Numbered from the stretch's first letter, positions 26,336-64,000 are shown. The stretch is 64,000 nt of DNA from Owenia fusiformis (GCA_903813345.2 CAIIXF020000001.1:24366001-24430000), one strand, 5' to 3'. Numbers and translations: made by a program. Notes: generated by a model not told the origin, from the sequence alone.

Positions 26336-29300
26336 AAGGCCATCAGCTTCACCCCAAAATTTAGGTTATCGGTATCAAATCAGGGGAATAATCGCCATAG
26401 TGATTTTTGGGAAGGTTAAGACCTCTAGAGTAAGAAACTATGTGATAGCATTGCCACAGTTGTAGCTAAATGGGTGTTATCACCCGTTTTTCAAAATGGC
26501 CGCCGGTGCACTGAGATGCAGAAACACTGAGATGCAGAAACTGTGATTTTAGGGCCTATTTTGAGGTTTTAGGGGTCAAGGATTTCATTTATGCCAAAAT
26601 CTAAGTCATCAAGCAATTACTTCTTGTAGAAATCCAAGATGGCCACCAATATGGGTGCCAAAACGAATACCGGTATGTAACCATCGATTTAAGCTCAAAG
26701 AACAGTTAAGAACAGTGATTTTGGAGATCATGTCACAGTTCTCGAGTCCAGTGGAGACGATAACCCCATTTAACGTGTAACACGGAGATTGCCATTTTGC
26801 ACGTCAATTGACGTGAATCACGCCAATAAGCATAATGTCCATTGTAATTCATAATTTAAACACCAGGTTAATTAAAAGACCTAGTGTTTAATATATATAC
26901 AATCTAAGTAATATATCTTTTATAGTACATATACTTTGGTAAACATTAATGATATATTAAATCCCAGGGAAGTATTTCATTCCAAAATTGTGGAGAAAAA
27001 TGCCGTTCAATCTTGTGAATTTTCTGTCAATGTTACGAACCAATGAAGTCACCAACGAACTTGCATTCTTGGAAAGTCTAAATCGATCGATGGAACGCTT
27101 TTTATTGCATTTTCTTCAAGTAATTAATCTAATCTAGCACTTGTATGCAGGAATTCGCGATCCTATGTGGGAATTTTGCGCTAGAACTAATCAAAGTTAC
27201 CTCTCACGAATCCTAGAAAAACGCCATATTGGAATTACTAATACTCCTTCAATTGTCTAGATATCGTCTTTCCGACGGGTTTTATGACAATATTGGTACT
27301 GACCCAATGTTATTTTAATCTCTTAACACAACGTGAGCCCCAATTCCGAGAAAAGACCACTGGAAATCACTAAAATGGGGTCTACTTTCCCTCTTCTTAT
27401 TGACCGGAAGTGTTTTCCTGACCTCGGTGTGTTGCCGATTTTTTCGTTTTTTTCTGGCTGGATTTAGTTTTAAACCTTCTTTACAATGATCTAATGATTA
27501 TCTTAAATGAATTTTGAACAATTTAAATTCCTATCCTCATTAGATCAGAATGTATTAGTTTTCTTTCGATCATTTGTTTACTTCCGGTTTGCTGTTGAAT
27601 AAATATTTCGAGTAAACATTGACGTAAGCACATGATAATAGTTGTTAGTTCAAAATGCAACCCGGACAATAGCAAATGTTTATGATTATAACTATTACAT
27701 ACGATGCAGATCATGATTTACCCACTAGTTTCCCAGTTTATAACTGCCTGTTGTCCTGCCGATAATATGTGAAACTTTTACAAGATAATAGTTTGCACGT
27801 CAATTGCCGTGCAAAATATTGCACGTCACTTGACGGACATGACGGCAATTGCCGTTATTATCTATTGACATGCGCACTTATGCGTCATAATTTCACGTCA
27901 ATTGTCGTGCAACATGGCAATTGCCGTACTTCACGTTAAATGGGGTTATCGTCTCCACTGGAGTCAAGGATCTCATTTATGTCTAAATCAGAGTCATCAA
28001 GTAATAAACTTTTCATAGAAATACAAGATGGCCACCAAAATGGATGCCAGAATGATTGCCAGTATGTTACCATTGATTTAAGCTCGAATGAGAGTTAAGA
28101 ACAGTGATTTTTTTGGAGATCATGCCACAGTTCTAGAGTCAAGGATTTCATTTATGTCTAAATTGGAGTCATCAAATAATAACCTTTTCATAGAAATACA
28201 AGATGGCCGCCAAAATGGGTGCCAAAATGAATATGTAACTATTGATTTAAGCTCAAAGAACAGTGATTTTGGAGATCATGTCTTGGTTTTAAGGGTCAAA
28301 GATTCCATTTATGTCTAAATCTAAGTCATCAAACAATTACTTTTATAGAAATCCAAGATGGCCACCAAAATGGATGCCAAAATGAATATGTAACTATTGA
28401 TTGAAGCTAAAAGAACAGTTAAGAACAGTAATTTTGGAGACTCTGTCTATTTTGTAGGGGCCAAGGATTTTATTTATGTCTAAATCTAAGTAATCAAATA
28501 ATAACTACTTCTTATAGAAATCCAAGATGGCCACCAAAATGGGTGCTGAAATGAATATGTAACTATTGATCTAAGCTCAAAGAACAGTTAAGGACAGTGA
28601 TTTTGGAGACCATGTCCAGGTTTAAGAGGCCAAGAATAACTATTTTGTCTATAATTAAGTCATAAAACAATTCCTTTATTTTGATATCCAAGATGACCGA
28701 CCACCAAAATGGCTCCAGAGTCACGATTTTGAGGACTGACTAAAATGTTTATCTTCATCAAACTCTTTCTGGTTTATCATACACTTGTCTTTGAGGAATT
28801 TCTTGTGCTTGATCTTCTCCATCCAATAATCTACTTCTTCCCATGGGCAGTCTACTTCTTTCTATAGCCAATGTTTATGATACTGAGCCACCACAAAACT
28901 AAGGGAAAGGAAGGCAAATTACAGTAATATTGCTAATGCGATGATCATAAGATTTTATTTCGCAAATCTTCATGTAATTGTTTGTTCTTATTTGACCTTT
29001 TATAATATAAACACTTTGGCATCCATCTTGAATTCTGATATTAATCACAGATTGTTTGGTGATCTATGTGGTTAAATGGATATGAATTCATTTTGGAGGC
29101 CATCTTGGATATCCATATAAATAAAATATTTGTTGATTTTATTAAAGACAAAATTAAAATCATTGACCCCACAAACTTAAAATATCAAAAATTAATGTTC
29201 TAACTCCTCTATATGTTTGGATAATAAATCTTATTTTCACTTCGGCAGCAATGATGGAAGCCATCTTGGATCCAAATAAAGGAATTAGTTATAGTTTTAG

Positions 29301-30561
29301 ACATAACTGAAATTCTTGACACCAAAAATCTTGACATGGTCTCAAATTACTGTTATAAACTGTTCTTTGAGCTTAAATCAATATTTACTTGTTATTGGCA
29401 CCGTTTTTTGTGACCATCTTGGATTTCTATGAAAAGCAATTATTCGATGACTCAGATTTAGACATAAATGAAACCCTTGACCCCTAAAACCTAGACATTG
29501 TCTCCAAAATCACTGTTCTTAACTGTTCTTTGAGCTTAAATCAATAGTTAAATATTCATTTAGGCACCCATTTTGATGGCCATCTTGGATTTCTATATAA
29601 AGTAATTGTTTGATGACTTAGATTTAGACATAAATGAAATCCTTGATCCTTTAAACCAAGACATTGTCGCCAAAATAACTGTTCTCAACTGTTCTCTGAG
29701 CTTAAATCAATCAGTTACATATTCATTTTGGCACCCATTTTGGTGGCCATCTTGGATTTCTATTAAAGTAATTGTTTGATGACTCAGATTTAGACATAAA
29801 TGAAATCCTTGACCCCTAAAATGCAGACATGTGCTCCAAAATCACTGTTCTTAACTATTCTTTGAGCTTAAATCAATAGTTGAATATTCATTTTGGCACC
29901 CATTTTGGTGGCCATCTTGGAATTTTTATTTAAAGTAATTGTTTAATGACTTAGATTTAGACATAAGTCAAATCCTTGACCCTTAAAACCTAGATATGGT
30001 CTCCAAAATCACTGTTTTTAACTGTTCTTTGAGCTCAAATCAATAGTTACATATTTGATTTGGCATCCATTTTGGTGGCCATCTTGGATTTCTATGAAAA
30101 GTAATTATTTGATGACTCAGATTTAGACATAAATCAAATCCTTGACCCCTAAAACGTAGACATGGGCTCCAAAATCACTGTTCTTAAGTGATTCTTGAGC
30201 ATTAACAGTAGTTACATATCCGTTTTTGCACCCATTTTGGCGGCCATCTTGGATTTCTATGAGAAACAATTGTTTGATGACTTAGATTTAGACATAAATG
30301 AAATCCTTGACCCCTAAAACCTAGACATAGGTCCTAAAATCACAGTTTTTGCATCTCAATGTGCTTAGATATACACACTCTTGTATTGTGACACGTACAC
30401 TGACGGCCATTTTGAAAAATGGGCGATAACACCCATTTAGCTACAACTGTTACAATGCTATCACATATTTTCTTACTCTAGAGGTCTTAACCTTCCCAAA
30501 AATCACTATGGCGATTATTCCCCTAATTTGATACCGACCAATCCCCCAGGCTGATGGCCTA
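26336..30561. mobile_element. Academ-like foldback element carrying ~166-bp tandem arrays in opposite orientations
   Basis: Ends (a/t)aggccatcagc / gctgatggccta, ~200-bp TIR, 3-bp TSD AAT. ccatcttgg units at 29414, 29580, 29747, 29912, 30079, 30244, with mirror units at 26636 and 28025-28690. Confidence 0.8.
26749..27960. mobile_element. MITE with 5-bp TSD nested in the satellite arm
   Basis: TIR cagtggagacgataaccccatttaacgtg / cacgttaaatggggttatcgtctccactg; TSD GAGTC (26744-26748, 27961-27965). Confidence 0.9.
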
Positions 30562-49240: not shown

Positions 49241-51919
49241 ACAACCTAAGGAATTCCTTACATTTATATTGTATAAACAAGATTCAAGATATCCAAAAAT
49301 ATGACATAAAACTTAATTAGATAAGGCGTGGAAAATATTGTTACAAAACACTGTTAAAACCCTGTTCTTCAGGGACAGTTAATGAATCCAGTTTAGTGGA
49401 TGCTGCTCTTGTTGTAGGCGATGGGGAAGAAAACCTTGCGACAGTATGTGTGAATGTTGTATTGACATTATTGTGTTATTTTTTTCTATTTTAGCAATTA
49501 CATTATGCTGATTGTATTAACAACTGTTTGAATTACAGATTACAGTTAACCTTGTCTTTATGAATACCATTCACTGGAAATTGCTAATAAATTCCCATCA
49601 TGAAAATTATTGAAGAAAAAAGCCAGCAATCATTTCATTTTCCTACCAACCCAAGAAATTGAAATTGCACAAGCTTAACTGTACAGTACTTAGTGTAGTG
49701 TTTTCTCATAAATAATGAGATTATTTATTATTTATGAGAAAATTACAAATACTCTTGTTAATTTGTTTATTTATGAGTGTTGTTACTTTTAAGTGTTTAC
49801 AAGGGTGAAGATTGCAGGACTTTGTCAGATAAGTACACTTATGCTTTGTTAATTTGTTCTACTCAATTTTTTAACATGAATTAACATTTAAATGAAAACA
49901 AAAACACACTATATTTTTTATACCTGTGTCATACTCGTTGCTGTCTGGATTAAAAGTTAAAACTTAAATTCATAATGTTATGCTGAGACAAAATCCAATT
50001 AGAAAACATTTGATTATTAGTTTGAATGTATAGGTTCGCCTGACTTTTAACATCAGCCCATAGCTCAGATTATCATTCAGTGTTTTCATTAAATGATGAT
50101 GTATGTTGTACCCATACTTTTGTCTAAAAAGTAGAACTATTTATTTTTTCAGATGTCTGATGCAGAGATGCCATCCAATGAGAACCATCCAGCTGTAAGT
50201 ATCTCTTTTTTGCTTGAATGGGTAGAATGGGACTAAGGAATTTTCTGGTATATTGGTCCATTGTCCATTGTATGAGGGGTGATTCAAAAGTTATAAACAA
50301 CATTTTATAGGCATACTTAACATTGTGTTTCAACCTTGCAATAAAGAAACGTCTCCTTCACAATAAATTAAAGTTAAAGAAAGAATTATTTTGTATACAT
50401 GTATTTGCCTTTCCAGGATGGTGAAATAGTGATAGTGAAAATGATGACCCACAACATCCAAAGACATCACATGTGTTTATTTTTTGTTTTACAGGAAAGT
50501 CTAAATGATTCCCTGGTTCCCCTTTAAAAAGTGATAATTCAATCAAATGCATAGCATTCATCCTGAGTCTTGTCAAAAAAGTTAAGTTATTCTTAACGAA
50601 GATAAAATATTCTGAGACGTCAATATCTTTATATTTTTTCTTTTTTAGGAAACATATAATGAGTTGGTAGAACAAAACAAAAGGCGGAACAGAGAATTTA
50701 TTTATTTATAATTTATTTATTAATCCATTAATCCATAAACAAAACAAAAATAATTTGGCAAGGCAAAACAAACCTTATTACAGAGATACTCTCAGTTTGA
50801 TTAGAGTCTGCTATAAAGGAAGCATCTTATGTAATTTAATTATTCCTTACACAGAACTTGATAAATTATAATTTGCCAAAGAACAATAACTTAATCCATA
50901 GATCCATAAATAAAAATGAAGTACAAAAATTCTGAAAATATTATTTTCAGTTTCATATACTTGCTATTTGAGATTTCTTAGCACTTATTGAAGCAATTGA
51001 ATAAAGAAATAAACCCTCAAAAATCTGAAAACACTTTTTAAATTTTTAAGCCCCCCCCCCCTTTAGCATGAAATAGAGAATATAAATAAATATATAGTAT
51101 AACACAAGGTGAAAATAAATATAACAGAAACTATGACTATGAACCCTATTTCTGGTCAAGCAATTTAATTAGCTGTCCCACCGTTTTAATTAGCTGTTCA
51201 ACTGTTTTAATTGGCTGTTCAAGCATTTTGATTTGCCTAAACCTATGAGAATGTTAATATGTAGTACAGTAGTAGGTATTGTTGTGTTGAGCATTATTAT
51301 AAAAAATATTTGCCAAGAAAGAACATGATAATTAAATCTGTGGTGAATAATGTGTTTCACACATAATATACAGTCAATATCAAAATAGTTATCTTGTTTG
51401 TATTTTTTAAAGTTAGTGAGTCATACTCTTGATATGAGGTGTTAACTACACATAATATTGATACATTTGAAAAACATTCTCACTAAATATTTGGAGATTT
51501 GCTCAATTCTTTTCATAATTAACATTAAAGATACATCATTTTGGCCATATCAGATAAAAGGAAATAAAAACCCTACATATCAGTCTTACAGACTGGGCAT
51601 TATGTCTCAGCTACTATATAGAAAGCATATTACTATAAAAATATAAATTCTGTATACAAAGTTTTCAAACCTGTATGTTATAAAATAATATGGATAATCT
51701 ATTATTTTTTAAAAGTCATTTTATTCTAATAGATTTTTTTTAATAGAAATATGAGATTTTTATATAAACATACCCCATTATATATTAATTAGGGACAGAA
51801 ATCACTAAGATCACCTGATTCAGTTTAATCAAGCGCTTCCAAATTGGTTATAGCAGGGGGAAGGAGGTACGGATTCTGGATACCTGCTTTGGAGGATGGC
51901 TGATGAACATGCCAATATT

Positions 51920-52140
51920 GTGTTGAATTTTGCCAATAGTTAACTGAATACTGCCAAAAGCTTAATGAATACTGTCAATAGTTTAATGAATACTGGCAAT
52001 AGTTTAATGAATACTGGAAAAAGTTATTGAATACTATTATGAATACTAACAATTAGTTCATTGAATACTGGCAATAATATAATGAATACTGGCAATAGTT
52101 TATTGAATACTGCCAATATTATAATAAATGCTGGCAATAG
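51920..52140. repeat. 21-bp minisatellite
   Basis: About ten degenerate copies of gaatactggcaatagtttaat. Confidence 0.8.
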
Positions 52141-54170
52141 AACATCCTTCTTCAAAGGACTTCATTTATGCTTAAATTCAGCCCTTCACTTAAGCCCAGT
52201 TAGTTTCATTTTAGGGGTCATAAATAAGCTGAGTTTCCTAGTGGTCAACGCAGAAAATGCGTTACCAATCACAATGCTCTATACTAATTTCAATGGGCAT
52301 GTTTTGTCCCTCCTCTGTTTATGACCCTTAATAGGATGTAAATTACTTATAAATTGGATTCTTAAAGAGAAATGCATCCAGACTGGGGCAATAAACTCAT
52401 TAGTGAACATGACATATTGCAACCATTTACATTTCAATGTGAAATGGTTGCAGTTTGCAATGGTTGCAGATTACAATGATTGTAAAGAAACGGTTGTGCA
52501 GTCGTTGAAAAAGAGTTGACTTTGCTTGGTTGAACGCAATGGTTGCACAATGATTGCTTATCATTGTACAATGGTTTTTCCTTTGATCTTAGTAGTTGAA
52601 ACAATCAGTATTCAATGATTGATGGAAATGCTTTAAATTCGGACTTTCAAGGTTGAATTTTTTATAAGGGTACCATAAAGTATAATTCTATTCAACTTCT
52701 TCGTCACCGTAAGAGTCTTGAACAAGGTCCTGATGTATAAAACTTCAATTTGAATAAATCCAACATCATGATTTAAGATTTCCATCAACAAAAAGCGGCG
52801 ATATGAACTATGGTACGAGCATTGCACTTTTTACGACTTCCTGGATGGACTTTTAGCATTCTTTTATGCCTCAATAGTAACAGGCTTTCGAGATAATAAA
52901 AGTGCTTGTCTTGTGTTTTATGTAAGTTTCTCACTGTGCATGACTTGAAGGGTGTTCTATCTTATATCGTGTATCTATTGCTCTCATGACGTTGTATCAG
53001 TTTTCGAGGTTATCTCAACAAATATAAGACATAGGCGAGATATAAAGGTCCTTCATCATTCTTGGTCCCATACATATTAGACATTAGGTTCACCTTTAAT
53101 AGTTAGCAAGTTGCTTAAAATAAATCGTTCATATCCAAAGCCTCTTCAATCTGAACACCTCCCAATATGAACACTTTCTCGGTTCCTCTATACAATGTAT
53201 GGTAGTATAGGGTTTGTTTCATTTTGACTGACCATACTTCATACCTTATTTTTCCTGCTTTCCGTTTCTATAGAGCGCAGATGGCATTAGCACCGAAACC
53301 TGCCTTCACCAAGAAACATATATATGTCCGAAGGTATATTAGTACAGTTCCGACCGAGCAAAACTTCAGTCGGTTATTAGCCACTGATAACCTTTACGCA
53401 GATTGGGGGCGGGGCCAGGTGCAAAACTTACACAGCCTCTTGAGCACTTAGTTTACATGAAGCTAGATTGCTAGTTAGTCCCGCGACCCCTCTCCAAACT
53501 CCCACAATCTTTACAATACAGTAACAGTATGGTTCGCCCGTCACCGATCTGCTCATATTTTGTGAACATATGTTTGGTTTATTGCAGATGGTTTTACTGA
53601 AACATTCATATTTATGAAATAACTCAGATCTAAGAATGTAAATTGTATTTATCGTGTATTTCTTTATATACTATATTGTATTCCTCAGTTTGTTCTGTCA
53701 GACTTGGTCTTGCTATTTTGAATAATTGTTCAACACTATCTTAAAGTGTCTTTCAAAGACTTAGAAGGAGAATTTGAGATTTCGAGCCATATGTCTCAAG
53801 AAAATGCTCTTACCTTTCTAGTAGGATGAGTTCATGTGCCAAAAACAGCTGATCAAAGGATATATATCATTTTCCAATTGACAATTTTTGTTGAGCCCTG
53901 CATTTTTAACACTGTTTTTGACAGGAAGTCATACCCAAAATGAAAACTGAATAAAACAACATTTATCCTAAATGTAGATCAAAATACTTACTCAGACATG
54001 CAAAATGTTATTATTAGTAGTAATGCTGATCATTTTTAAGAAATTTAAGCATGTAAATAAGACTTTTTTCGTCCATGATTATATAGATAAATAAAACTAT
54101 ACAAAACGTGCATTATATCCTGGATTACAATTTATATAATAGTAAAATAGGATTTACACAGCATTACATG

Positions 54171-56203
54171 TGTAGCATATATATATACTTGCTATTTATT
54201 ACTCAGTGGTCTTTTCAGTGACAAACAAGCACTATTACGGTTATTAAACTTTATTAATACACATATAAATTACAATAAATACGACTCTGAAATATTACGT
54301 GTTTTAGAGAATTAAGTTAATATTTATTAAGCACGATAGTCCATAAAGATGCACCAATACGTTAATGAAATGAATGTTTATTGGTATGTTTACTATGTGA
54401 ATATATTTAGTGTCAATGTTCACTTTAATTCAATAGATTGTGATCTAATATTTCATCAACAATGACAACTCTCTTCGGCTAATGGTTCGGCTAATAAATT
54501 CAGCTAATTCGTCGACTAATCTGTCGGCTAATTCGTCGGCTAATCTGTCGGCTAATTCTTCGGCTAACAGGGTTGTTTATGATATTAAGTTCGGCTAACC
54601 AGCTTCGGCTAACAGGATTATTTATAATGTTCGGCTAACTCTTTCGGCTAGCAGAACAATGTTTATAACAATTAGAATTCAGCAACTTGTTTCGGCTAAT
54701 CACTTGATTGAGCTACCATGAAGACTTTTTGTGTGCTTCAATAGGCTAACCAAGAATAACATAACCTTAAACCTGGAAATATATAGAATACAATTCGGCT
54801 AATTAACACAATTCGGCTAATCAACACAATTCGGCTAATTGCTCTGTTCTACTGAATTGACCCATAGATTCGGCTAATTTCCCTGATCGGCCGGCTAATG
54901 TTGTGGAATTTCCGGCTAAACACCAGGCTAAACTCCAAAACAATCGGCTAATTGTAACCCTAGAACAACCCAATATAGAGGGAGAATGCAACATCGGCTA
55001 ATATACCTTTACAATAGCTCAATAGTCGGCTAAAATGGCTAGCTCGGCTAACTTACCACAAGTCTTGTCAGTGGTTTCCGATTCTTCACGAGAATGGCGG
55101 TCGTAACCAGGACACGGACTTATATAGGAATCCAAACCATTGTTTTACGTCATATTCAAACTTCGCGCTTCTATAATGGCAAACTTTTTGCAGAACGGAA
55201 ATAATCTATATATCACTAGTTTTACTTATTTACTCCAAATTAAAGCTTCAATTATATTCTGATAAATCATTTAAGATCCTTGCATTTAATTGCAACATTA
55301 TCAAATATTCAGAAACAGCTTAACGCTTCTCATAAGTTTTGATTTCGTTTCACCATTAATAATCTACTTCCGGTCAGAGCAGAAGAAACCAATTTTAAAG
55401 GAATATTCCTTGCCAAACCATCTCTCTCCTCATATGGTAGCTATAACCATATATATGCTTGCCATGTTTAGCAAAACACGCAAAAATGTTTTGATATGGT
55501 CAAATTTGATCACTTAGAAATGTGATGCTCAATTCCAGTAAGCTGCCATCTTTTAAAATTTCACACAGGAAGTGATGTCATCGACTCTCAACTTTGCATA
55601 TAGCATTAGGTGAGGAGCTATTAAGAATTACAAAACCAGCTAAATATTCTTTTTCAACTTTGTATCTTATTTAATCCTTCTGAAAATCTCTTCTTTTATT
55701 CTAAGTTGACAAGCCCTGAAAATATTTTTGCACAGAAAGTAATGGTCACTTGTCTAGAAGTGATTTTGTGCTACTTTCCTATACTGTTATGGGCAAGGTT
55801 ATAGAAGTTGAGAGTTGATGACATCACTTCCTGCAAGAAATCTTAAAAGATGGCAGCTCACTGGAAATAAGCACTAGCTTTTTAAATGATCAATATTGAC
55901 CATATTAAAACATTTTCCCATGTTTTGCTAAATATGGAAACTATATATATGATTATAGCTACCATATCAAGAGAGAAAGGGTCTGGCAAGGAATATTCCT
56001 TTAAAGATTTCTCGGAACATTTTGTAAGTTTTCTCATTTTTATACTAGACTTCATGTCATTTACGTATAATTTATCGTTTCTTTACATTACAGGGGTAAC
56101 TTTGATCACTGATATAAGTTCGATTTATTATATATATCATATCTTATTGTATAAAAGGACTTCAGATTTTCATTCATAAAAATGACGATCCACGATCGTC
56201 ACA
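54171..56203 (-). mobile_element. Putative 3' LTR of the Gypsy element (left boundary uncertain)
   Basis: Starts TGTGAC at 56203, right after the PPT. Minus-strand TATATAA at ~55120-55126, AATAAA at ~54250-54255, candidate end ...GCTACA at 54171 (alternative GTTACA at 54953). Confidence 0.5.
55399..56000. mobile_element. Kolobok-like MITE inserted in the LTR
   Basis: TTAA|aggaatattccttgcca ... tggcaaggaatattcct|TTAA, with ~200-bp TIRs. Confidence 0.85.
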
Positions 56204-56220
56204 TTACTCCCCTCTTCTTT
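56204..56220 (-). promoter_or_regulatory. Polypurine tract of the Gypsy element
   Basis: Minus strand aaagaagaggggagtaa immediately followed by TGT. Confidence 0.75.
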
Positions 56221-56291
56221 ATGAGATGTGTCCTCACATCTGTCATAAAAGAATAAATATATATATTTAACATATTTACAATTTTCCTTTA

Positions 56292-57537
56292 TTACAATAT
56301 AATACAATTTCTATTAGAGGTCTCTGGTCTATCCCATTGTAGTCTTGCCTGACAGGCAACGTCCTTAGTGTTCAAATTGCTGTCTACAACATTCCCTACA
56401 CTACAACTGTCCTCATCACTACCGCTATTACCATCACTTTCACCGCTACTACTATCACTGTCCCCACTACTACCATCACTGTCCCCACTACTACCATCAT
56501 TGTCCCCACTAATACCATCACTGTCCCCACTACTACCATCACTGTCACTACTACTACCACTGCTCTCACTGCCATCACCCTGTCCATCCCTGCATTCATC
56601 GTCACCAGAACCATCACCTCTATCGCCACATTCACCATCATCATCCTCCACTTCTACACTCTCCTTCGCTACAACAGAGTTCATATATTTCAATATCTCT
56701 CACATATTATTAGTGTTTACTTATTCATTATATACCTTCTATGTATATTACTTTTATTAGTTAAATTATCTCACCTTCTACACTCTCCTTCGCTTTCTGC
56801 TCTTTCTCCCACTCTTCTCTCAACTCCTTCCTCATCGTCTCCCGTTTCCTCTCCTCTCTTTTCTCAGTCTCCTTCGTTCGTCTAATCATTCTCTGCAAGT
56901 TGCTTTCTTGCCTTGGGTTTCTCTTTAGACGAACTAGTGTTGGCGATTCTGAATAAACAGGCAATCCAACCAAATCTATCGACACCCCTGGCTCCTCTCC
57001 CAAATCCTCTTCCGCCTGTATCAGTCTTTGTTCCACCACCTTCTTGTTTTCCACTTCCATCCTCCTTCGCTTTCTCTCCGCATCAACCCTCTTCACCTGC
57101 TCCTTACACTTCTGCTCATGCTCCCTCACTCCCTCAGCCAACTTCTGCTCCAATCCTCGCATCTCCTCATCGAACTTGTTGCATCTTTCCTTGAACTCCA
57201 TCTCTTTACGTCTCCCACTTCCTGCTTCTTCTCTCTCCTTCGTTCTCTCATCTTCTACTTTCCTCCTTTTTACACTCTCCTCCTCCTCCTCCTCCTCGGA
57301 CCTTCTCTTCAACGGTTCTACGTAGTACTTGCTTGGGACAACTTCAAAACCATACTGATGTTCTCTTGACAACTTATGAAGCCTGAGCCTGTGGTTAAAG
57401 AGATCTTCTTTCCTTGTGAAACGTCTATTGCATACATCACATATAAACAACTTGACTGTCCTTTGGTGGACCCGCCTATGCCTGCTCAGGCTACTTGAAT
57501 GTGAGAAGCTCACGTCACAGGATTCACAGGGAAACAT
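56292..57537 (-). CDS. Spliced accessory gene in the Gypsy element: two C2H2 zinc fingers, charged coiled coil, Ser/Gly/Asp-rich tail (~379 aa)
   Basis: Exon 57537-56775 (CESCDVSFSHSSSLSRHRRVH; CDVCNRRFTRKEDLFNHRLRLH), GT-AG intron 56774-56669 (phase 1, G+CG = Ala, in frame), exon 56668-56292. Total 1140 nt, open. Confidence 0.7.
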
Positions 57538-57855
57538 CTGCAAATATAACATGGCAGTTATTAATGATATCTCTCTATCATTTATTTATTATTACTTAAT
57601 TATTACTTTTTTTATATTTTCCTTTTACAGAGCCTATTTAATCACATCAGGATTTACTACATAAATTTTAATACTAAATTTACAATAACCTGACAGCTCA
57701 TTCTCCCCACATCCTCTTCAAAATCCTCCTTCCCCAGAACAGATTTGTTTAAAAAAACAACAAAAAAACAAACAAAACAACAACAACGATAAACATGCGT
57801 CATTATAAATCAATATTTATTAACAGCATATTTAATAAACACTATTTCAATGGAT

Positions 57856-59600
57856 CTAATAAATCCAATCTCCATATCTATTTGGTGACTTCCATAACCT
57901 TCCCCTTTCACTTGTTTTAAGGATAGGTTGGGTATCGTCTTCATCTTCTTGATGATCTGGTTCTTCTATGACTATCTCTTGTTCCATATTTTCGCTACTC
58001 ATACTTTCATTGTTAGTTTGAACATCTGGGAAATATTTCTTAAGTCTGTCTATGTGCACAACTTTTGGAGTTCTATCACTGCTTAATATCTGAACTCTGT
58101 AATTCACGTCAGACATTTTCTCTGTTACTACACATGGACCCTTCCATGGACAACTCAGTTTCTTAGTGTTACCAACTGGGATAGCAGGACAATGCACCCA
58201 AACATGATCATTCTTTTCAAAGGTTCTTGGCTGGACTCTGACATCATAATTCTTCTTCTGTCTATTTGCAGCTTTTCCTAGAACGTCCCTTGCAATTTGA
58301 TGCGCCTCTTCCATCTTTTGTCGAAGTTCAAAGGCATATGCATTCGAGGGCATTGTTGTATTAGGTGGTGCACCAATCTGCAGATCAATAGGCATCTCCA
58401 CTTCTCTTCCAAGCATTAACATGTTTGGACTTTGTCTGGTACTCTCGTGTTGAGGTGCTCTGTATGCCATCAAAAGACACGGTAAATGTTCGTCCCAATC
58501 CCTCTGATTCTTTTGTACATACATGCTCAACATCGTCTCCATGGTTCTGTTAAACCTCTCTACAAGGCCATTACATCTAGGGTGAAACGCTGTCGTACGT
58601 GTTTTCTTTACATCCAGAAGAGAGCACATTTCACTGAACAAAATCGATTCAAAGTTCGACCCCTGGTCTGAGTGAATTTCACGAGGAATTCCAAATCGTA
58701 CGATAAATTCATTGACTATTTTCTTTGCCACAGTTACAGCTGTCTGATTTGGCATTGGGTAACATTCAACCCATTTAGTGAAGTAATCTGTAAGCACCAG
58801 TATATTCCTATTTCCGGAATATGTTTCTGGTAATGGCCCTACAACATCAACAGCCAGCCTCTCCAGAGGTGCTCCAACAGTACACTGTTGAAGTTGAGCA
58901 TTTTTACTACCACCATGATGCTTCTTGGATCCACATTGGTGACACTTTTTAACCCAATCGACAACATCTTCTTTCATTTGATACCAGAAGAAACGATTCC
59001 GCACTTCAGTTAACGTTCTTGCCATACCCAAATGTCCTGCAGTCTTTGAATTGTGCAGAGCATATAATACATCACTTTTCAAGCATGTTGGTAGCACTAG
59101 TTGCCACTTAGTTTGACGTTGATCATCAGAATCCCATTTTCTATATAGAATCTGATCATGAATGACTAAACGTTCCCATTCAGCCAGCAGCATTTTTGTT
59201 GCTGGTGATCTCATAGATACTTTCTCTCCTGTTGGTCGGTCCATACCAGAGGACTTCCAACGTAAGACATGTTTTATGTTATGATCTTCTGACTGCATTT
59301 CCAGAATGGAACTGCGAGTCCAACCTTCAATCCAACTATCGGAATGATTATCAGTTGTATTGACTATGTACACATGGTTTATCACATCACCATGCTTCTT
59401 ATTTTTACTATGTTCTTTTGCCTGTTGTTTCAGGACATCAGATTTAGTTTCAGAGAATAGATCACTCTCTTCGCTTATCCCACATTGTTTACAGGGTATT
59501 CTACTTAACCAATCAGCATTCCCGTGCTTTTTACCAGGACGGTGCTGAATTTCCAATTTCATAGGTTCCGAGTATTTCTAGCCATCGTGCCACCTGCCCT
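57856..59600 (-). CDS. Gypsy/Ty3 integrase portion of pol (open frame, frameshifted from RNase H)
   Basis: HNSKTAGHLG...CHQC (HHCC); AVDVVGPLP, IHSDQGSNFES, NGLVERFNRT (DDE); WKGPCVV (GPY/F-like). Confidence 0.95.
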
Positions 59601-61023
59601 TCAGGTTCTTTGAAATTGAACAGCCAGTGCAATGCAGCATGGTCTGTACGTAGCAAAAACAACTTCATTGCCTTCTTGAACCTGACTCAAAACTCCACCA
59701 ACAGCCCAATCGCTGGCATCAGTATCCAATATGAAACTTTTATCAAATTGTGGATACCTCAATATAGGTGCGCTTTTCAACCGACTTTTCAAGTTCACAA
59801 ATGCTTCTTCACAAGCAGGTGACCAATTGAATGGTTCTTTCTTTTCTGTCAAAAGAGTCAAAGGCTTTGCTATTTCAGAATAATTCTGCACAAATTTCCT
59901 ATAGTACCCACATGTACCAAGAAATGATCGCACTTGAGATGCATCTTTCAAGTGAAGCCATTTTTCAATACACTCTATCTTAGCTGGGTCAGGTGCAATT
60001 CCCGATTCTGAAACAATATGCCCTAGAAATGTCACGCTTTTTCTGAAAAGAAAGCACTTCTTGGCTTTTAATTTGAGTGTATATTTCCTGAATCTCTCAA
60101 AGACATGACTCAATCTCTCAACTTGAGCCTCAAAAGAAGGGGCATAAGTTATGACGTCATCTAAATAGACTAGGCATTCTTCGTATTGTAGCCCTGACAT
60201 AACAACTTCCATCAATCTCTCAAAAGTAGCAGGGGCGTTACACAGCCCAAAAGGCATTACTCTAAAATTATAGAGTCCATTGCCTGTACAAAACGCAGTT
60301 TTGTCCCGATCTCTCTCATCAACTAAACAAGAATCTAAACAAGAATCAATTAATGGTAAAGGATATGCATCCTTATATGTTACATTGTTGACCTTTCTAT
60401 AATCCACACAAAAGCACAGAGTACCATCTTTCTTTTTAACCAAAACGATGGGTGAACTCCATGCACTCTGAGATCTTTCAATAACACCTCTTTCAAGCAT
60501 ATCATTTATTTGTCTATCAACTTCAGATTTCTGATGATATGGGACTTTCCGCGGCCTCTGTCTTATAGGCCTCGAATCACCCACATTTATAGTGTGTTTC
60601 ACAGCATCTGTCTGACCTAAATCACTATCAGATGTAGTAAAAATGTCTTCATAATCGATTAGCAATTTTGTAACAATTGCTTTTTGATCACAGTCTAGAT
60701 TTTCCGTAGACCTTTCAACAAGATCCACCATATGCTCTGGTATGGCTTTCAAAGTATCTGATTTATTGACTAAATTTACTCGCACATTCTTACCAGGCTT
60801 TGCCTTTTTGGTATCAACTATTTCATCGACATCTAAGGATATCATCTCAAATTGCCCTAAAACCGACCCCTTCCTAAGAAACTGGGGCTCAGTACTGGTA
60901 TTAATAACTTTTACAGGCATTTGACCTGCCATTTGTACCAGAGAATTAGCAATAGCAATATCACTGTCTTGATGATTTATTATCACACCCAGTATGACAT
61001 CATTGTCTAACATCTTGTTTGTA
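59601..61023 (-). pseudogene. Gypsy/Ty3 RT-RNase H portion of pol, with internal deletions
   Basis: WSSPIVLVKKKDG, FCVDYRKVN, MPFGLCNAPATFER, YLDDVI, FILDTDAS are present. The first catalytic Asp block (LDLxxGYxQ) is missing at ~60324-60347, and the RNase H core is deleted/frameshifted at ~59660. Confidence 0.93.
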
Positions 61024-62929
61024 CACTGTAAACCTGCATAGTATAAATGCGGCAGTTCGCTTGTCACTGGTAGAAAGTCATTAATCACACATCTGGTGTT
61101 CTTGCACATGCGTAGTGGTAATAAAATCTGTCTTAGAAAATATGGCTGTGGTGTTTGAAGGCTATGTCATGTTGTCTGGTAAGCTTAAAATCTATGATTT
61201 CTACCTACATTTCTCTGTTTAAACCTATTGCCTAATTATCTTAAGATATTAAAGACTTGCTGAATCATATTTATTTGGTCATTATGTTACTATTTTAAAG
61301 GTATCAGTTAATTTAAAATATATATTTTTTGCATTTTTAAGTGTACTTTTCCTTCATATTTTCTATCTTTTCCTACTTTTTTACTTCAAAACTTTTTTCA
61401 TAGTGAGAATCAATGGGGTATTATGAAACAATATCACTTGAAGAAAAGTGTACATTATTTTGTTTAAAGAAGATATTGGAATTTTAATTTGGTAGGTGTT
61501 GGCCAAAGTTGATATTTTTAACATTAGTTTGAATAGGCAACTTTGAGCTGTTGCTTGCAGAAAACAAGTGATATATCAAAGGAAAAAAATAATGTAGAAA
61601 ATTGATTTAGATGAGCAGAAAGACGAGACTTTTAAGTACAAAACCATCAAAAAATTATAGGATTCAAAAAGTAGAATCAATTCTCGAAATCGTTGTTCCC
61701 TCTTCAAAAGAGAAGACGCGAAAATCTTTCCTTATAAGGGCAAAATATTTCCCATGATGCAGTTCGCGGAGGAACAAATTTATACTTCCTTATTTTCCCT
61801 CATAGGTTTAACATGGGGATTTTCACACCTATTTTTCAAACGATATATTCATTCATATTCCCGTACAAGAGTACAGAAAAAATTATTAGAAACGATTGAT
61901 CTCTCATTAATCTTAATATAACAGCTATTTTTTTCATTGTATTAATTAATAGCGCGGTGAAAACGATGATTGAAAAGTGAGAAAATATTCCGGAAGAGAA
62001 TGTCACGTGATCGGTAGACTAGTCGCCATATTGGAAAAAACAATTCCATTCGACTTTCAATACTTTCATGCCAATCTTACCGCACTACAAACTGCGACAT
62101 CGATGCAACAACTGAATAAAAGTATTCATCTTCAAATTACATTATAGAGTTACGTTGAAAACCCACAAACAACTGAGCAGTAGACCAAAGAAGACGCGTC
62201 GCTATTATATAGGTCAATCTGTTCAGTGGTCTGAAAGCAAATCTATAGTACTCGTTTCCGAATTTTGTTGTTCATTGTACAATCTTTTATTGATTAAACT
62301 CGGTATACTGACTATTAAAGCAATGACAAAGAAGAATACTTACGATGGTGCCATTGTTTTATTTAGCGTGCGGGTGTAATCACAAAATTGAGTAATTAGT
62401 TTGATTTAGAACTTTCGTGTCACACAAATAGCTACGCGAAATGCAGTGGGAAAATATTGACCAATCAAATTTTGTCCTTTTTGAGTGCTTTTTCAGTGTA
62501 TATTTGCGAACGTTCTGATTCAAAGAGCGAACCGCGAAAAGGAGAATTGGAAAAGTGACTTTTCATGCAAATGTGTACTAAAATTAAAATTTTATTCATG
62601 AACTAGTGTTTCATTTACAAAAGATAGATACAATGGAATGTGTTAGAATTCGGTTGATTATGATTGAAGTTTGTTAACTTTTTTTACATCTTTGAATTAC
62701 CAATTGATCATTCTTTCTAGTTATTGCAAAAGATAAAGTTTCTAAGTAAGTTTAAACGAGGAATAACATGAAAAGAGATTGCGGTTTAATTAACCAAAAG
62801 TGGCTATAGCATTAACTTTCTACAGTGGAAGACTGTTTGACCTACTAGTAAACAAAGCTAAGAACTGGATACTGGGCTAATTAATCAAAACCAGCTTGAC
62901 AAGCGAACTGCCAGCTTAGGTTTACAGTG
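61024..62929. mobile_element. CMC (Chapaev-like) non-autonomous DNA element inserted in pol
   Basis: TIR cactgtaaacct..ggcagttcgcttgtca / tgacaagcgaactgcc..aggtttacagtg; 4-bp TSD TGTA (61020-61023, 62930-62933). Confidence 0.8.
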
Positions 62930-63772
62930 TGTACACAATTCTATAGAATCAATCTTATTCTGATCTCGGAAATCATGTCTTTTTAAGTTATTTCCTTTGA
63001 TCTGACTTTCACCATCTCCATTTTGATTCATAGGACTCTTATAAGTCTTTGTGTGTTTTGTTGATGTATACGGTACGGTACCTACATCCGGTTCGGCACC
63101 AACTTCCGGTACGAAACACATTTCCGGTTCGTTACCAACTTCCGGTTCGCGTACTTTGGTTTCATTTACACACCCTATACTACTTTCGTTTTTAATAAAT
63201 TTTCCAGAAATAACCATTTCGTGTTTTCCAGGAACAAAAATGGATTTTGCTACCACTATTCTATTTACAATACCATCGCCATCGTTTTCAAAGACATTTC
63301 TGTTCTCTTTCCTAGATAATTGTAACATATTTGACTTAAAATCTATATTACAATGATACTTTTCAAGTACGTCTGTACCAAATAACGCGTCACAATCAAT
63401 GTCAGCAACAATCACATCGTGCTGTATTTCTAGTGCATCCATCATGATATTCAATTTACATGAACCATGCACTGTCATTGGCCTTCCATCTGCCACTTTA
63501 TATACATTATTTACATCATTTAGCAACGGTCTATTGCCGTTAGCACGTACTTCCACAAACACATCATACGATATAATAGTAACATCACAACCACTATCTA
63601 CACAAAATTTTACACGTTTATTATTTACAAAACTATTTACAAATATTCCATTTGGTTCTTTATACATAGGTACTGTAACACATGTCCCATTTTCGTTACA
63701 GTTGGCTGAGTTCTGGGACTCTGCCTCAGCCATCGTTAGTTTCCCTGTTTGATTACTTTTGGATTCGTACAC
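62930..63772 (-). CDS. Gypsy aspartic protease portion of pol
   Basis: VKFCVDSGCDVTIIS and ALFGTDVL motifs. The element continues past the right edge (gag not identifiable in the window). Confidence 0.9.
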
Positions 63773-64000
63773 CGATCTTTAAAATGTCCAAATTCCAAGC
63801 AATTCCAACATTGTATCTCCTCCATGGAATATCGTTTCTTCTTACTATCATCCTGTTTGTTCTTCATGTTCATCTTTGACATTGATTCCTCTATTCATGT
63901 CAGCGTTTTCTTTAGTTCTGCTATTTCATCGTTACTATTAGTGATCGCCCTTACATTACTAGTGATACTAGAAGCACTTCTTCTTTGTCTTTCCGCAAGA

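Follow-up and report, generated by a model that had tools for sequence, protein, structure and literature searches.

Additional open reading frames (ORFs) and spliced accessory genes are already known in long terminal repeat (LTR) retrotransposons, and such extra genes show simple elements turning into complex, retrovirus-like agents. To our knowledge, CERV of the Ty3/Gypsy element Cer1 is the one animal example outside envelopes that has been studied well. In Cer1, an element of Caenorhabditis elegans, an ORF that follows pol is described as forming part of CERV, a nuclear protein made from a spliced mRNA and acting in the export of genomic RNA (PMC10309623). The LTR elements of bdelloid rotifers are described as carrying varied third ORFs (ORF3s), some of them coiled-coil and expressed from spliced messages (PMC5408684), and plant LTR retrotransposons as carrying additional ORFs, or aORFs (PMC7264820, PMC11963269, PMC9289625). 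Here we describe a 379-codon gene with two C2H2 zinc fingers, a real protein-coding gene in the post-pol ('env') position of a Ty3/Gypsy copy of Owenia fusiformis. It lies in a stretch of 64,000 nucleotides (nt) (GCA_903813345.2, CAIIXF020000001.1:24366001-24430000), hereafter the window, in which positions are counted from the first letter; the gene and pol are on the minus strand. Our preferred reading, which we hold tentatively, is that the gene may be an element-borne ORF3 for a nuclear, nucleic-acid-binding regulator.

The gene consists of two ORFs that join in frame across a 106-nt GT-AG gap (Table 1). The joined exons, of 763 and 377 nt, make 1140 nt, that is, 379 codons and a stop. Over this joined frame there is no stop codon, compared with a mean of 26.3 in dinucleotide-preserving shuffles, and none of the 5000 shuffles was stop-free; the remaining two sense frames contain 20 and 58 stops. 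Open frames of 102-180 codons also occur on the antisense strand of the ORF DNA, because the sense strand is purine-rich, and they do not weaken the shuffle result. The gap is more AT-rich than the exons (77% A+T versus 52-53%), and unspliced read-through of exon 1 meets a stop 4 codons into it. An acceptor-like AG (57539-57538), with a pyrimidine-rich run before it, abuts the ATG. These observations bear out much of an earlier, sequence-only reading of this DNA, which had claimed two ORFs joined in frame through a 106-nt GT-AG gap into about 379 amino acids, an ATG directly after an acceptor, an integrase ORF with its stop at 57856, and a 20-nt block encoding AKESVE on both sides of the gap, which we find to be exact at 56794-56775 and 56670-56651. 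A further in-frame ATG lies five codons before the proposed start (57550-57552, minus strand; MLYLQ-M...), so that an unspliced transcript could initiate there; the stop-to-stop frame of the ORF opens at 57585.

The 20-nt block is, by blastn within the window, the sole internal repeat of the gene. Its two copies enclose a 104-nt insert that has no further copy in the 64 kb. The insert opens with the donor GT and the second repeat copy with the acceptor AG; the 106-nt gap is thus the insert plus this AG. Since the flanking frames are in register with each other and the repeat is exact, the frame was once continuous. Insert and one repeat copy together make 124 nt, which is not a multiple of three. 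Judged from this footprint, the gap is a young insertion with target duplication into a once-continuous frame. An exact repeat at both sides is also the mark of a neo-intron made at a staggered break. The sequence-only reading had seen a paradox in a sense-strand intron, which would have to escape splicing in the genomic RNA to persist. The GT-AG gap on which the paradox was built is there, and the paradox is eased by the repeat, which marks the gap as a young insertion.

A comparable footprint is described for neo-introns of Daphnia pulex, in which a direct repeat of the adjacent exon end is found at the far end of the intron (33 cases, 4-12 bp; PMC4202315). As in Daphnia, DNA was inserted in a coding exon and the repeat of the exon end stands at the far side; unlike there, the repeat is 20 bp rather than 4-12 bp long, and splicing, documented in Daphnia, is predicted here (PMC4202315).

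The borders of the gap are those of a spliceosomal intron, with GT-AG in a consensus context and the frame kept on removal; splicing would retain 18 nt of the duplication in frame and give a second AKESVE. The donor (AAG/GTGAGA) agrees with the consensus at 8 of 9 positions, and the acceptor TAG, with a pyrimidine at -3, is preceded by 6 pyrimidines out of 10. We shuffled the insert 20,000 times and placed it in its real context, using the quality of the donor and of the pyrimidine tract as the threshold; in 18 shuffles this gave a GT-AG pair that keeps the frame, avoids stops and equals or exceeds the real one. The real sequence holds 11 such pairs of any quality, of which only the proposed one reaches top quality, and only one other strong donor-consensus match occurs on the minus strand of the 3.5 kb scanned. 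A random lesion is thus unlikely to produce such splice signals by chance. This rarity has to be read against the origin of the finding in a very large screen of windows, and we therefore put the predicted splicing of the gap at only roughly even odds. If the intron is both spliced and kept by selection, either a family-wide intron or host-level selection at the locus would follow.

The predicted protein opens with two C2H2 fingers (residues 2-24 and 31-54), recognized by Pfam as zf-C2H2 (E 1.7e-10; 41.1 bits against a cut-off of 25.2) and zf-C2H2_4 (E 7.5e-7; 29.8 bits against a cut-off of 27). Both fingers fit the pattern C-x2-C-x12-H-x3-5-H and keep all eight ligand residues. The ORF as a whole matches zinc-finger families only, and exon 2 matches no Pfam family. 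Residues 78-254 are highly charged, with 55% E, K, R or D and the basic clusters KRRK and RKRRR. AlphaFold2 predicts helices at 78-180 and 208-253, and the predicted local distance difference test score (pLDDT) of this block is mostly 79-98, in a single-sequence model with a mean pLDDT of 75.5 and a predicted template modelling score of 0.29; finger 1 and the linkers are modelled with low confidence. The tail (22 D, 6 E, 26 S and 21 G among 89 residues) is built on a tandem repeat of a 21-nt unit, present in 6.4 copies at 56425-56559. Seven of its units differ by 4 synonymous and 15 non-synonymous changes over 3.7 and 17.3 sites, a ratio of ~0.8 that is uninformative, given the few differences and one unit out of register. 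Acidic tails rich in S, G and D are typical of activation or histone-binding regions.

We found no hydrophobic or membrane segment; the highest Kyte-Doolittle mean over 19 residues is 0.91 in exon 1 and 0.13 in exon 2. By hydropathy and Pfam the protein also lacks the features of an env product, namely a signal peptide, a transmembrane anchor and homology to fusion proteins. The description given by the sequence-only reading, of two C2H2 fingers, a coiled-coil region rich in E, R and K, a repeat-built acidic tail and no transmembrane segment, holds, the coiled-coil region appearing as two long predicted helices. That reading had gone on to propose a transcriptional regulator or anti-silencing factor, a possible role suggested only by the domain make-up.

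Beyond the fingers, the protein appears to have no relative. A near-length, word-indexed search with the whole exon-1 protein gave 300 candidates, none at E<=1e-3, and one with residues 56-254 alone gave 371, none at E<=0.01. An exhaustive phmmer search of 1.84 billion representative proteins returned 21,644 matches at E<=1e-3. The best 150 of these are all long multi-finger proteins (5-44 stretches), matched via residues 1-4 onward with 33-46% identity in the fingers; among these 150, six matches run past residue 83, none runs past residue 144 and none covers 145-254. A near-identical protein, whatever its length, would rank first, and the gene is therefore absent from this library; a moderately diverged true relative could hide below the multi-finger proteins in the ranking.

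Searches of other collections were equally negative. None of the pattern matches of the zinc-finger protein was confirmed in metagenome contigs (321 matches), viral contigs (1 match) or prokaryote genome contigs (519 matches). By exact look-up, the protein collection contained none of six ORFs taken from the locus, and in the ESM Atlas recognition was under the useful level, the matches being unnamed clusters or other finger families. No paralogue of the gene occurs within the 64-kb window. Orphan status is usual for accessory ORFs of mobile elements. Among the 24 sequencing runs listed, 17 hold part of the stretch and 7 hold half or more of its words; they come from 6 studies and one organism, and the listed holders include no RNA run, although three RNA-seq runs exist for this species.

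Set beside CERV, the predicted protein shows likenesses of description. CERV is described as lacking homologues outside a narrow group and as a nuclear protein with a basic cluster resembling a nuclear localization signal, a helical zipper and a cysteine-based putative zinc site (PMC10309623). It is made from a spliced element mRNA whose acceptor lies ahead of the start codon, and the Owenia ORF likewise has an AG before its ATG (PMC10309623). CERV differs in its 517 residues and five exons, three of them shared with gag, and in its putative zinc site, a C4 loop, whereas the Owenia protein has classical C2H2 fingers and an acidic tail (PMC10309623). Moreover, the RNA-export function of CERV is experimental, whereas the Owenia gene is known from sequence, so that the likeness is one of description only (PMC10309623).

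With the additional ORFs of rotifers and plants the gene would share the status of an extra, family-specific ORF after pol, often of non-envelope type (PMC5408684, PMC7264820, PMC11963269, PMC9289625), whereas none of the types listed in the available text of these papers is a C2H2 zinc-finger protein. The word 'zinc' does not occur in the rotifer paper (PMC5408684), nor do 'zinc' and 'ORF3' in a survey of mollusc LTR elements (PMC6238403). Among the open-access papers listed for such ORFs, as judged by titles and the starts of abstracts, we found no C2H2 protein in the post-pol position. The Tas protein of foamy viruses combines a DNA-binding part with an acidic C-terminal part and is encoded near the 3' LTR by a spliced or internally promoted RNA. 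Its likeness to the Owenia protein is one of layout; there is no sequence relation, Tas is not known to have C2H2 fingers, and it belongs to another host and another class of element.

The element next to the gene is a Ty3/Gypsy (Metaviridae) copy, as seen from the order of its Pfam domains on the minus strand: RVT_1, RT_RNaseH_2, Integrase_H2C2, rve and Integrase_p58_C. By tblastn, protease (63646-63176), reverse transcriptase (RT; 60953-59652) and the remaining RNase H with integrase (59556-57859) are colinear with the 1327-residue protein P0154. The Pfam matches to aspartyl protease are weak and under the curated cut-offs; residues 19-173 of P0154 align to this part by tblastn. The C-terminus of pol coincides with that of its relatives, residue 1306/1307 of P0157 aligning to 57859. 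A search of longer proteins gave 1116 pol relatives at E<=0.001 among 3016 candidates. The best 120 are 34-48% identical over the integrase ORF, and those with names are mostly 'K02A2.6-like' or 'hypothetical protein'. With the integrase as query, one distant locus was found in metagenome contigs (L001, 28% identity) and none in viral contigs. In the C-terminal protease ORF, 63071-63160 is an 18-nt tandem repeat of 4.6 copies encoding an acidic hexapeptide of E, P, V and G (EPEVGN).

This copy is dead. An 18-residue in-frame gap in RT removes motif A with the first catalytic aspartate, the frame changes twice (near 59659-59652 and 59558-59556), RNase H lacks about 38 residues, and a 1.9-kb stretch without pol homology separates protease from RT; an intact, potentially active copy would show no such damage. 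The 1.9-kb stretch is probably a nested non-autonomous DNA transposon. It holds two frames of 86-87 codons without a Pfam domain, its inverted ends are imperfect, and no clear target duplication was seen around it. Inside the 573- and 521-codon pol pieces there are no in-frame stops. Judged by substitutions, the copy is thus young; its damage is by indels. Since the element copy is dead, the 'intact accessory gene of a Gypsy element' of the sequence-only reading can at this locus be no more than a relic or a domesticated gene. The whole case rests on this one dead copy.

Table 1. Positions of the gene, the insertion footprint, the element boundary signals and the pol pieces in the window
Feature	Position	Strand	Remarks
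Zinc-finger ORF start	ATG 57537-57535	minus	sequence reading
Exon 1	56775..57537	minus	254 codons + 1 base; fingers, then charged helices
Finger-coding segments	57534-57466 and 57447-57376	minus	within exon 1
GT-AG gap	56669..56774	minus	106 nt; GT 56774-56773, AG 56670-56669
Exon 2	56292..56668	minus	acidic S/G/D-rich tail; coding 56668-56295, TAA 56294-56292
20-nt direct repeat, copy 1	56775..56794	minus	exact; end of exon 1
Insert between the 20-nt copies	56774-56671	minus	104 nt, AT-rich
20-nt direct repeat, copy 2	56651..56670	minus	exact; first two bases are the acceptor AG
Spacer from pol to ATG	57538..57855	minus	318 nt, AT-rich
First polypurine-tract candidate, AAAGAAGAGGGGAG	56207..56220	minus	then TAA, TGTGA, palindrome 56201-56183
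Second purine-rich candidate tract	57735-57724	minus	more purine blocks to ~57700, then TG
Possible 3' LTR	54439..56203	minus	putative, inferred from its ends; TGTGA start, TCACA end 54443-54439
Integrase ORF	57856..59577	minus	Integrase_H2C2, rve, Integrase_p58_C
RT and front of RNase H	59601..61014	minus	Pfam, tblastn; lesions within
Nested insertion (probable)	61015..62938	.	1.9 kb, ~50-nt inverted ends
Protease part of pol	63071..63778	minus	weak Pfam; tblastn to P0154

The zinc-finger ORF starts 318 nt past the pol stop, on the same strand. The sequence-only reading had named a target duplication or terminal inverted repeats of its own as the sign that the segment is an independent insertion. 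We looked for inverted and direct repeats around the segment and found only AT-rich weak matches, and nothing therefore points to the arrival of the segment as a transposon of its own. The polypurine tract could be either of two purine runs that lie outside both coding and MITE sequence. The first, AAAGAAGAGGGGAG, is a 14-nt G-rich run that lies 72 nt past the gene stop and is followed by TG. It had earlier been placed at 56204-56220; the run is present, and its extent is 56220-56207. Right after it, at the would-be LTR start, an 8+8 palindrome occupies 56183-56201 on the minus strand (TGACGATC gtg GATCGTCA).

A 3' LTR may follow from this tract. The putative LTR would contain a later insert resembling a miniature inverted-repeat transposable element (MITE; 56005-55394), a TATA box TATATAAG (55126-55119), the donor-like motif GGTAAGT (55057-51) and an array of the motif TTAGCCGA; the call of its end is limited by five occurrences of TCACA in the 4.2 kb scanned and the lack of a second copy in the window. 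The foldback, MITE-like insert is 612 nt long, with 201-nt inverted arms (85% complementary) and a 210-nt loop, and is flanked on both sides by TTAA, a piggyBac-type target.

Several observations weigh against placing the gene inside the element. No LTR pair was found in the 64-kb window, since the element continues with its 5' part past 64000, so that any 3' boundary is putative. A polypurine tract usually stands shortly past the pol stop, and the second candidate tract, 120-160 nt past it, would put the gene outside the internal region. A TATA-like TATAAAAA at 57616-57609, 72-79 nt before the ATG, and an AATAAA that overlaps the stop codon fit a self-standing gene, a fit weakened because both motifs are common in AT-rich DNA (the 3.5 kb scanned contain eight TATA-like and fourteen poly(A)-signal matches). 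While pol has at least 5 indel lesions, the 1.14-kb ORF has at most 1, as would be expected if the gene were under selection here and not simply carried along; by a rough count, 0-1 lesions in an ORF of this length is not improbable. None of the best 120 pol relatives matches 54000-57850; seen as pol proteins only, they are silent on separate downstream ORFs. Finally, the gene, the insert, the spacer and the downstream region have no second copy within the 64 kb.

The main rival reading is a gene of the host, either independent or domesticated from a former ORF3, that would stand beside a 3'-truncated dead Gypsy copy and have its own promoter in the spacer, a young intron from repair of a staggered break and its own polyadenylation signal. 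It is favoured by the intact ORF beside a broken pol and by the TATA-like and AATAAA motifs; the purine tract and TG just past pol could end the internal region, the splice signals at the borders are far above chance, as selection on a working gene would leave them, and new introns of Daphnia are described as carrying exon-end direct repeats (PMC4202315). We nevertheless consider such a gene somewhat unlikely, since a gene that starts on the same strand 318 nt past the pol stop is an improbable chance neighbour, and a space of 318 nt is short to house both a tract and a whole LTR. The architecture, moreover, has no relative among the best 150 of the 21,644 phmmer matches or in the near-length searches, which is unusual for a conserved host gene; two fingers with charged helices and an acidic tail are unlike the multi-finger host proteins matched; and the once-uninterrupted frame looks retroelement-borne or retro-copied. 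The gene could, alternatively, be an element-borne ORF3 whose 124 nt of insertion plus duplication are a mere lesion, never spliced, with a coincidental GT-AG fit. The same copy carries other indel lesions and a nested insertion, the 124 nt shift the frame so that read-through stops after 4 codons, 11 in-frame GT-AG pairs make some pair likely, and very many windows were screened at the first stage. This is unlikely in view of the rarity of equally good pairs among the shuffles, the standing of the real pair as the only one of 11 at that quality, and a donor that has just one equal on the minus strand of the 3.5 kb.

That the gene is a captured host complementary DNA, a passenger without a role for the element, seems very unlikely to us. 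The post-pol position is a known site of captured sequence in retroelements, the frame was formerly intron-free, and the fingers, at 33-46% identity to those of multi-finger proteins, are of the ordinary host C2H2 type; yet a donor gene could not be detected, no protein matched outside the fingers, and no stop interrupts the 379 codons. The reading of the frame as open by chance, in DNA that is purine-rich and of low complexity, could draw on the long antisense frames and on a tail that is a 21-nt tandem repeat whose units show no excess of synonymous change. It is contradicted by the stop-free frame, matched by none of the 5000 shuffles and by neither of the other sense frames, and by two Pfam-significant fingers with all their ligands, and its probability is close to nil.

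We therefore return to the element-borne ORF3 as the reading that we tentatively prefer, and to what it would entail. The product would act in the nucleus as a small protein whose two C2H2 fingers bind DNA or RNA. Its charged helices, of ~100 and ~45 residues, may pair or oligomerise, or simply extend the protein, and the acidic S/G/D tail may recruit partners, so that the protein could regulate the transcription or expression of its own element or the handling of its RNA. The original frame would have been uninterrupted, as expected of a gene carried on the genomic RNA of a retroelement, until 104 nt of AT-rich DNA were inserted with a 20-nt target duplication. By luck or by retention, the insert would have brought a strong donor at its first base, with a usable acceptor in the duplicated target. 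The 379-residue protein with a repeated AKESVE would then come from spliced RNA, and a 258-residue protein without the acidic tail from unspliced RNA.

The TTAGCCGA array in the putative LTR, ~1.2 kb further on, allows a bolder proposal. On the minus strand, 54475-55051 contains 18 exact and 6 one-mismatch copies of TTAGCCGA in 577 nt; 0.73 exact copies are expected in the whole window, and none of 100 shuffles reached 18. All copies are on the strand of the gene, at irregular spacings of 12-103 nt, and the array starts right after GGTAAGT, ~70 nt past TATATAAG. It looks like a predicted cluster of binding sites rather than a simple satellite. The Gypsy family might encode its own sequence-specific transactivator, which would bind the array in a positive feedback loop, with alternative use of the new intron shifting the product from activator to tail-less competitor; this is a long shot. 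If true, an invertebrate retrotransposon would possess a circuit of the Tas/Tax kind known from complex retroviruses, one that would also mirror the array of Su(Hw) sites in gypsy, with the zinc-finger protein coming from the element and not from the host.

Elsewhere in the window, 26369-30537 holds arrays of a ~166-nt repeat and is a large satellite or foldback structure; 29376-30350 has 6 copies, and its partner arrays in inverted orientation lie at 28256-28700 and 26369-26669. A 21-nt periodic repeat at 51895-52161, with 8 registers 60-82% alike, is rich in TGAATACTGGCAATAG-like units. Rfam gave no match on 53000-64000, a tRNA search of the whole window found none, and Pfam found no family in 12 other window ORFs.

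As a candidate for a newborn intron the insert is a clean one, having the 20-nt duplication and splice sites close to consensus. Should this candidate intron indeed lie within a retroelement gene, one would have to ask how it could survive being passed through RNA. A C2H2 protein that binds DNA or RNA and is encoded in the post-pol position would, if the reading is true, be a new kind of element-encoded regulator, and an element-borne C2H2 gene would be a possible source of host zinc-finger genes.

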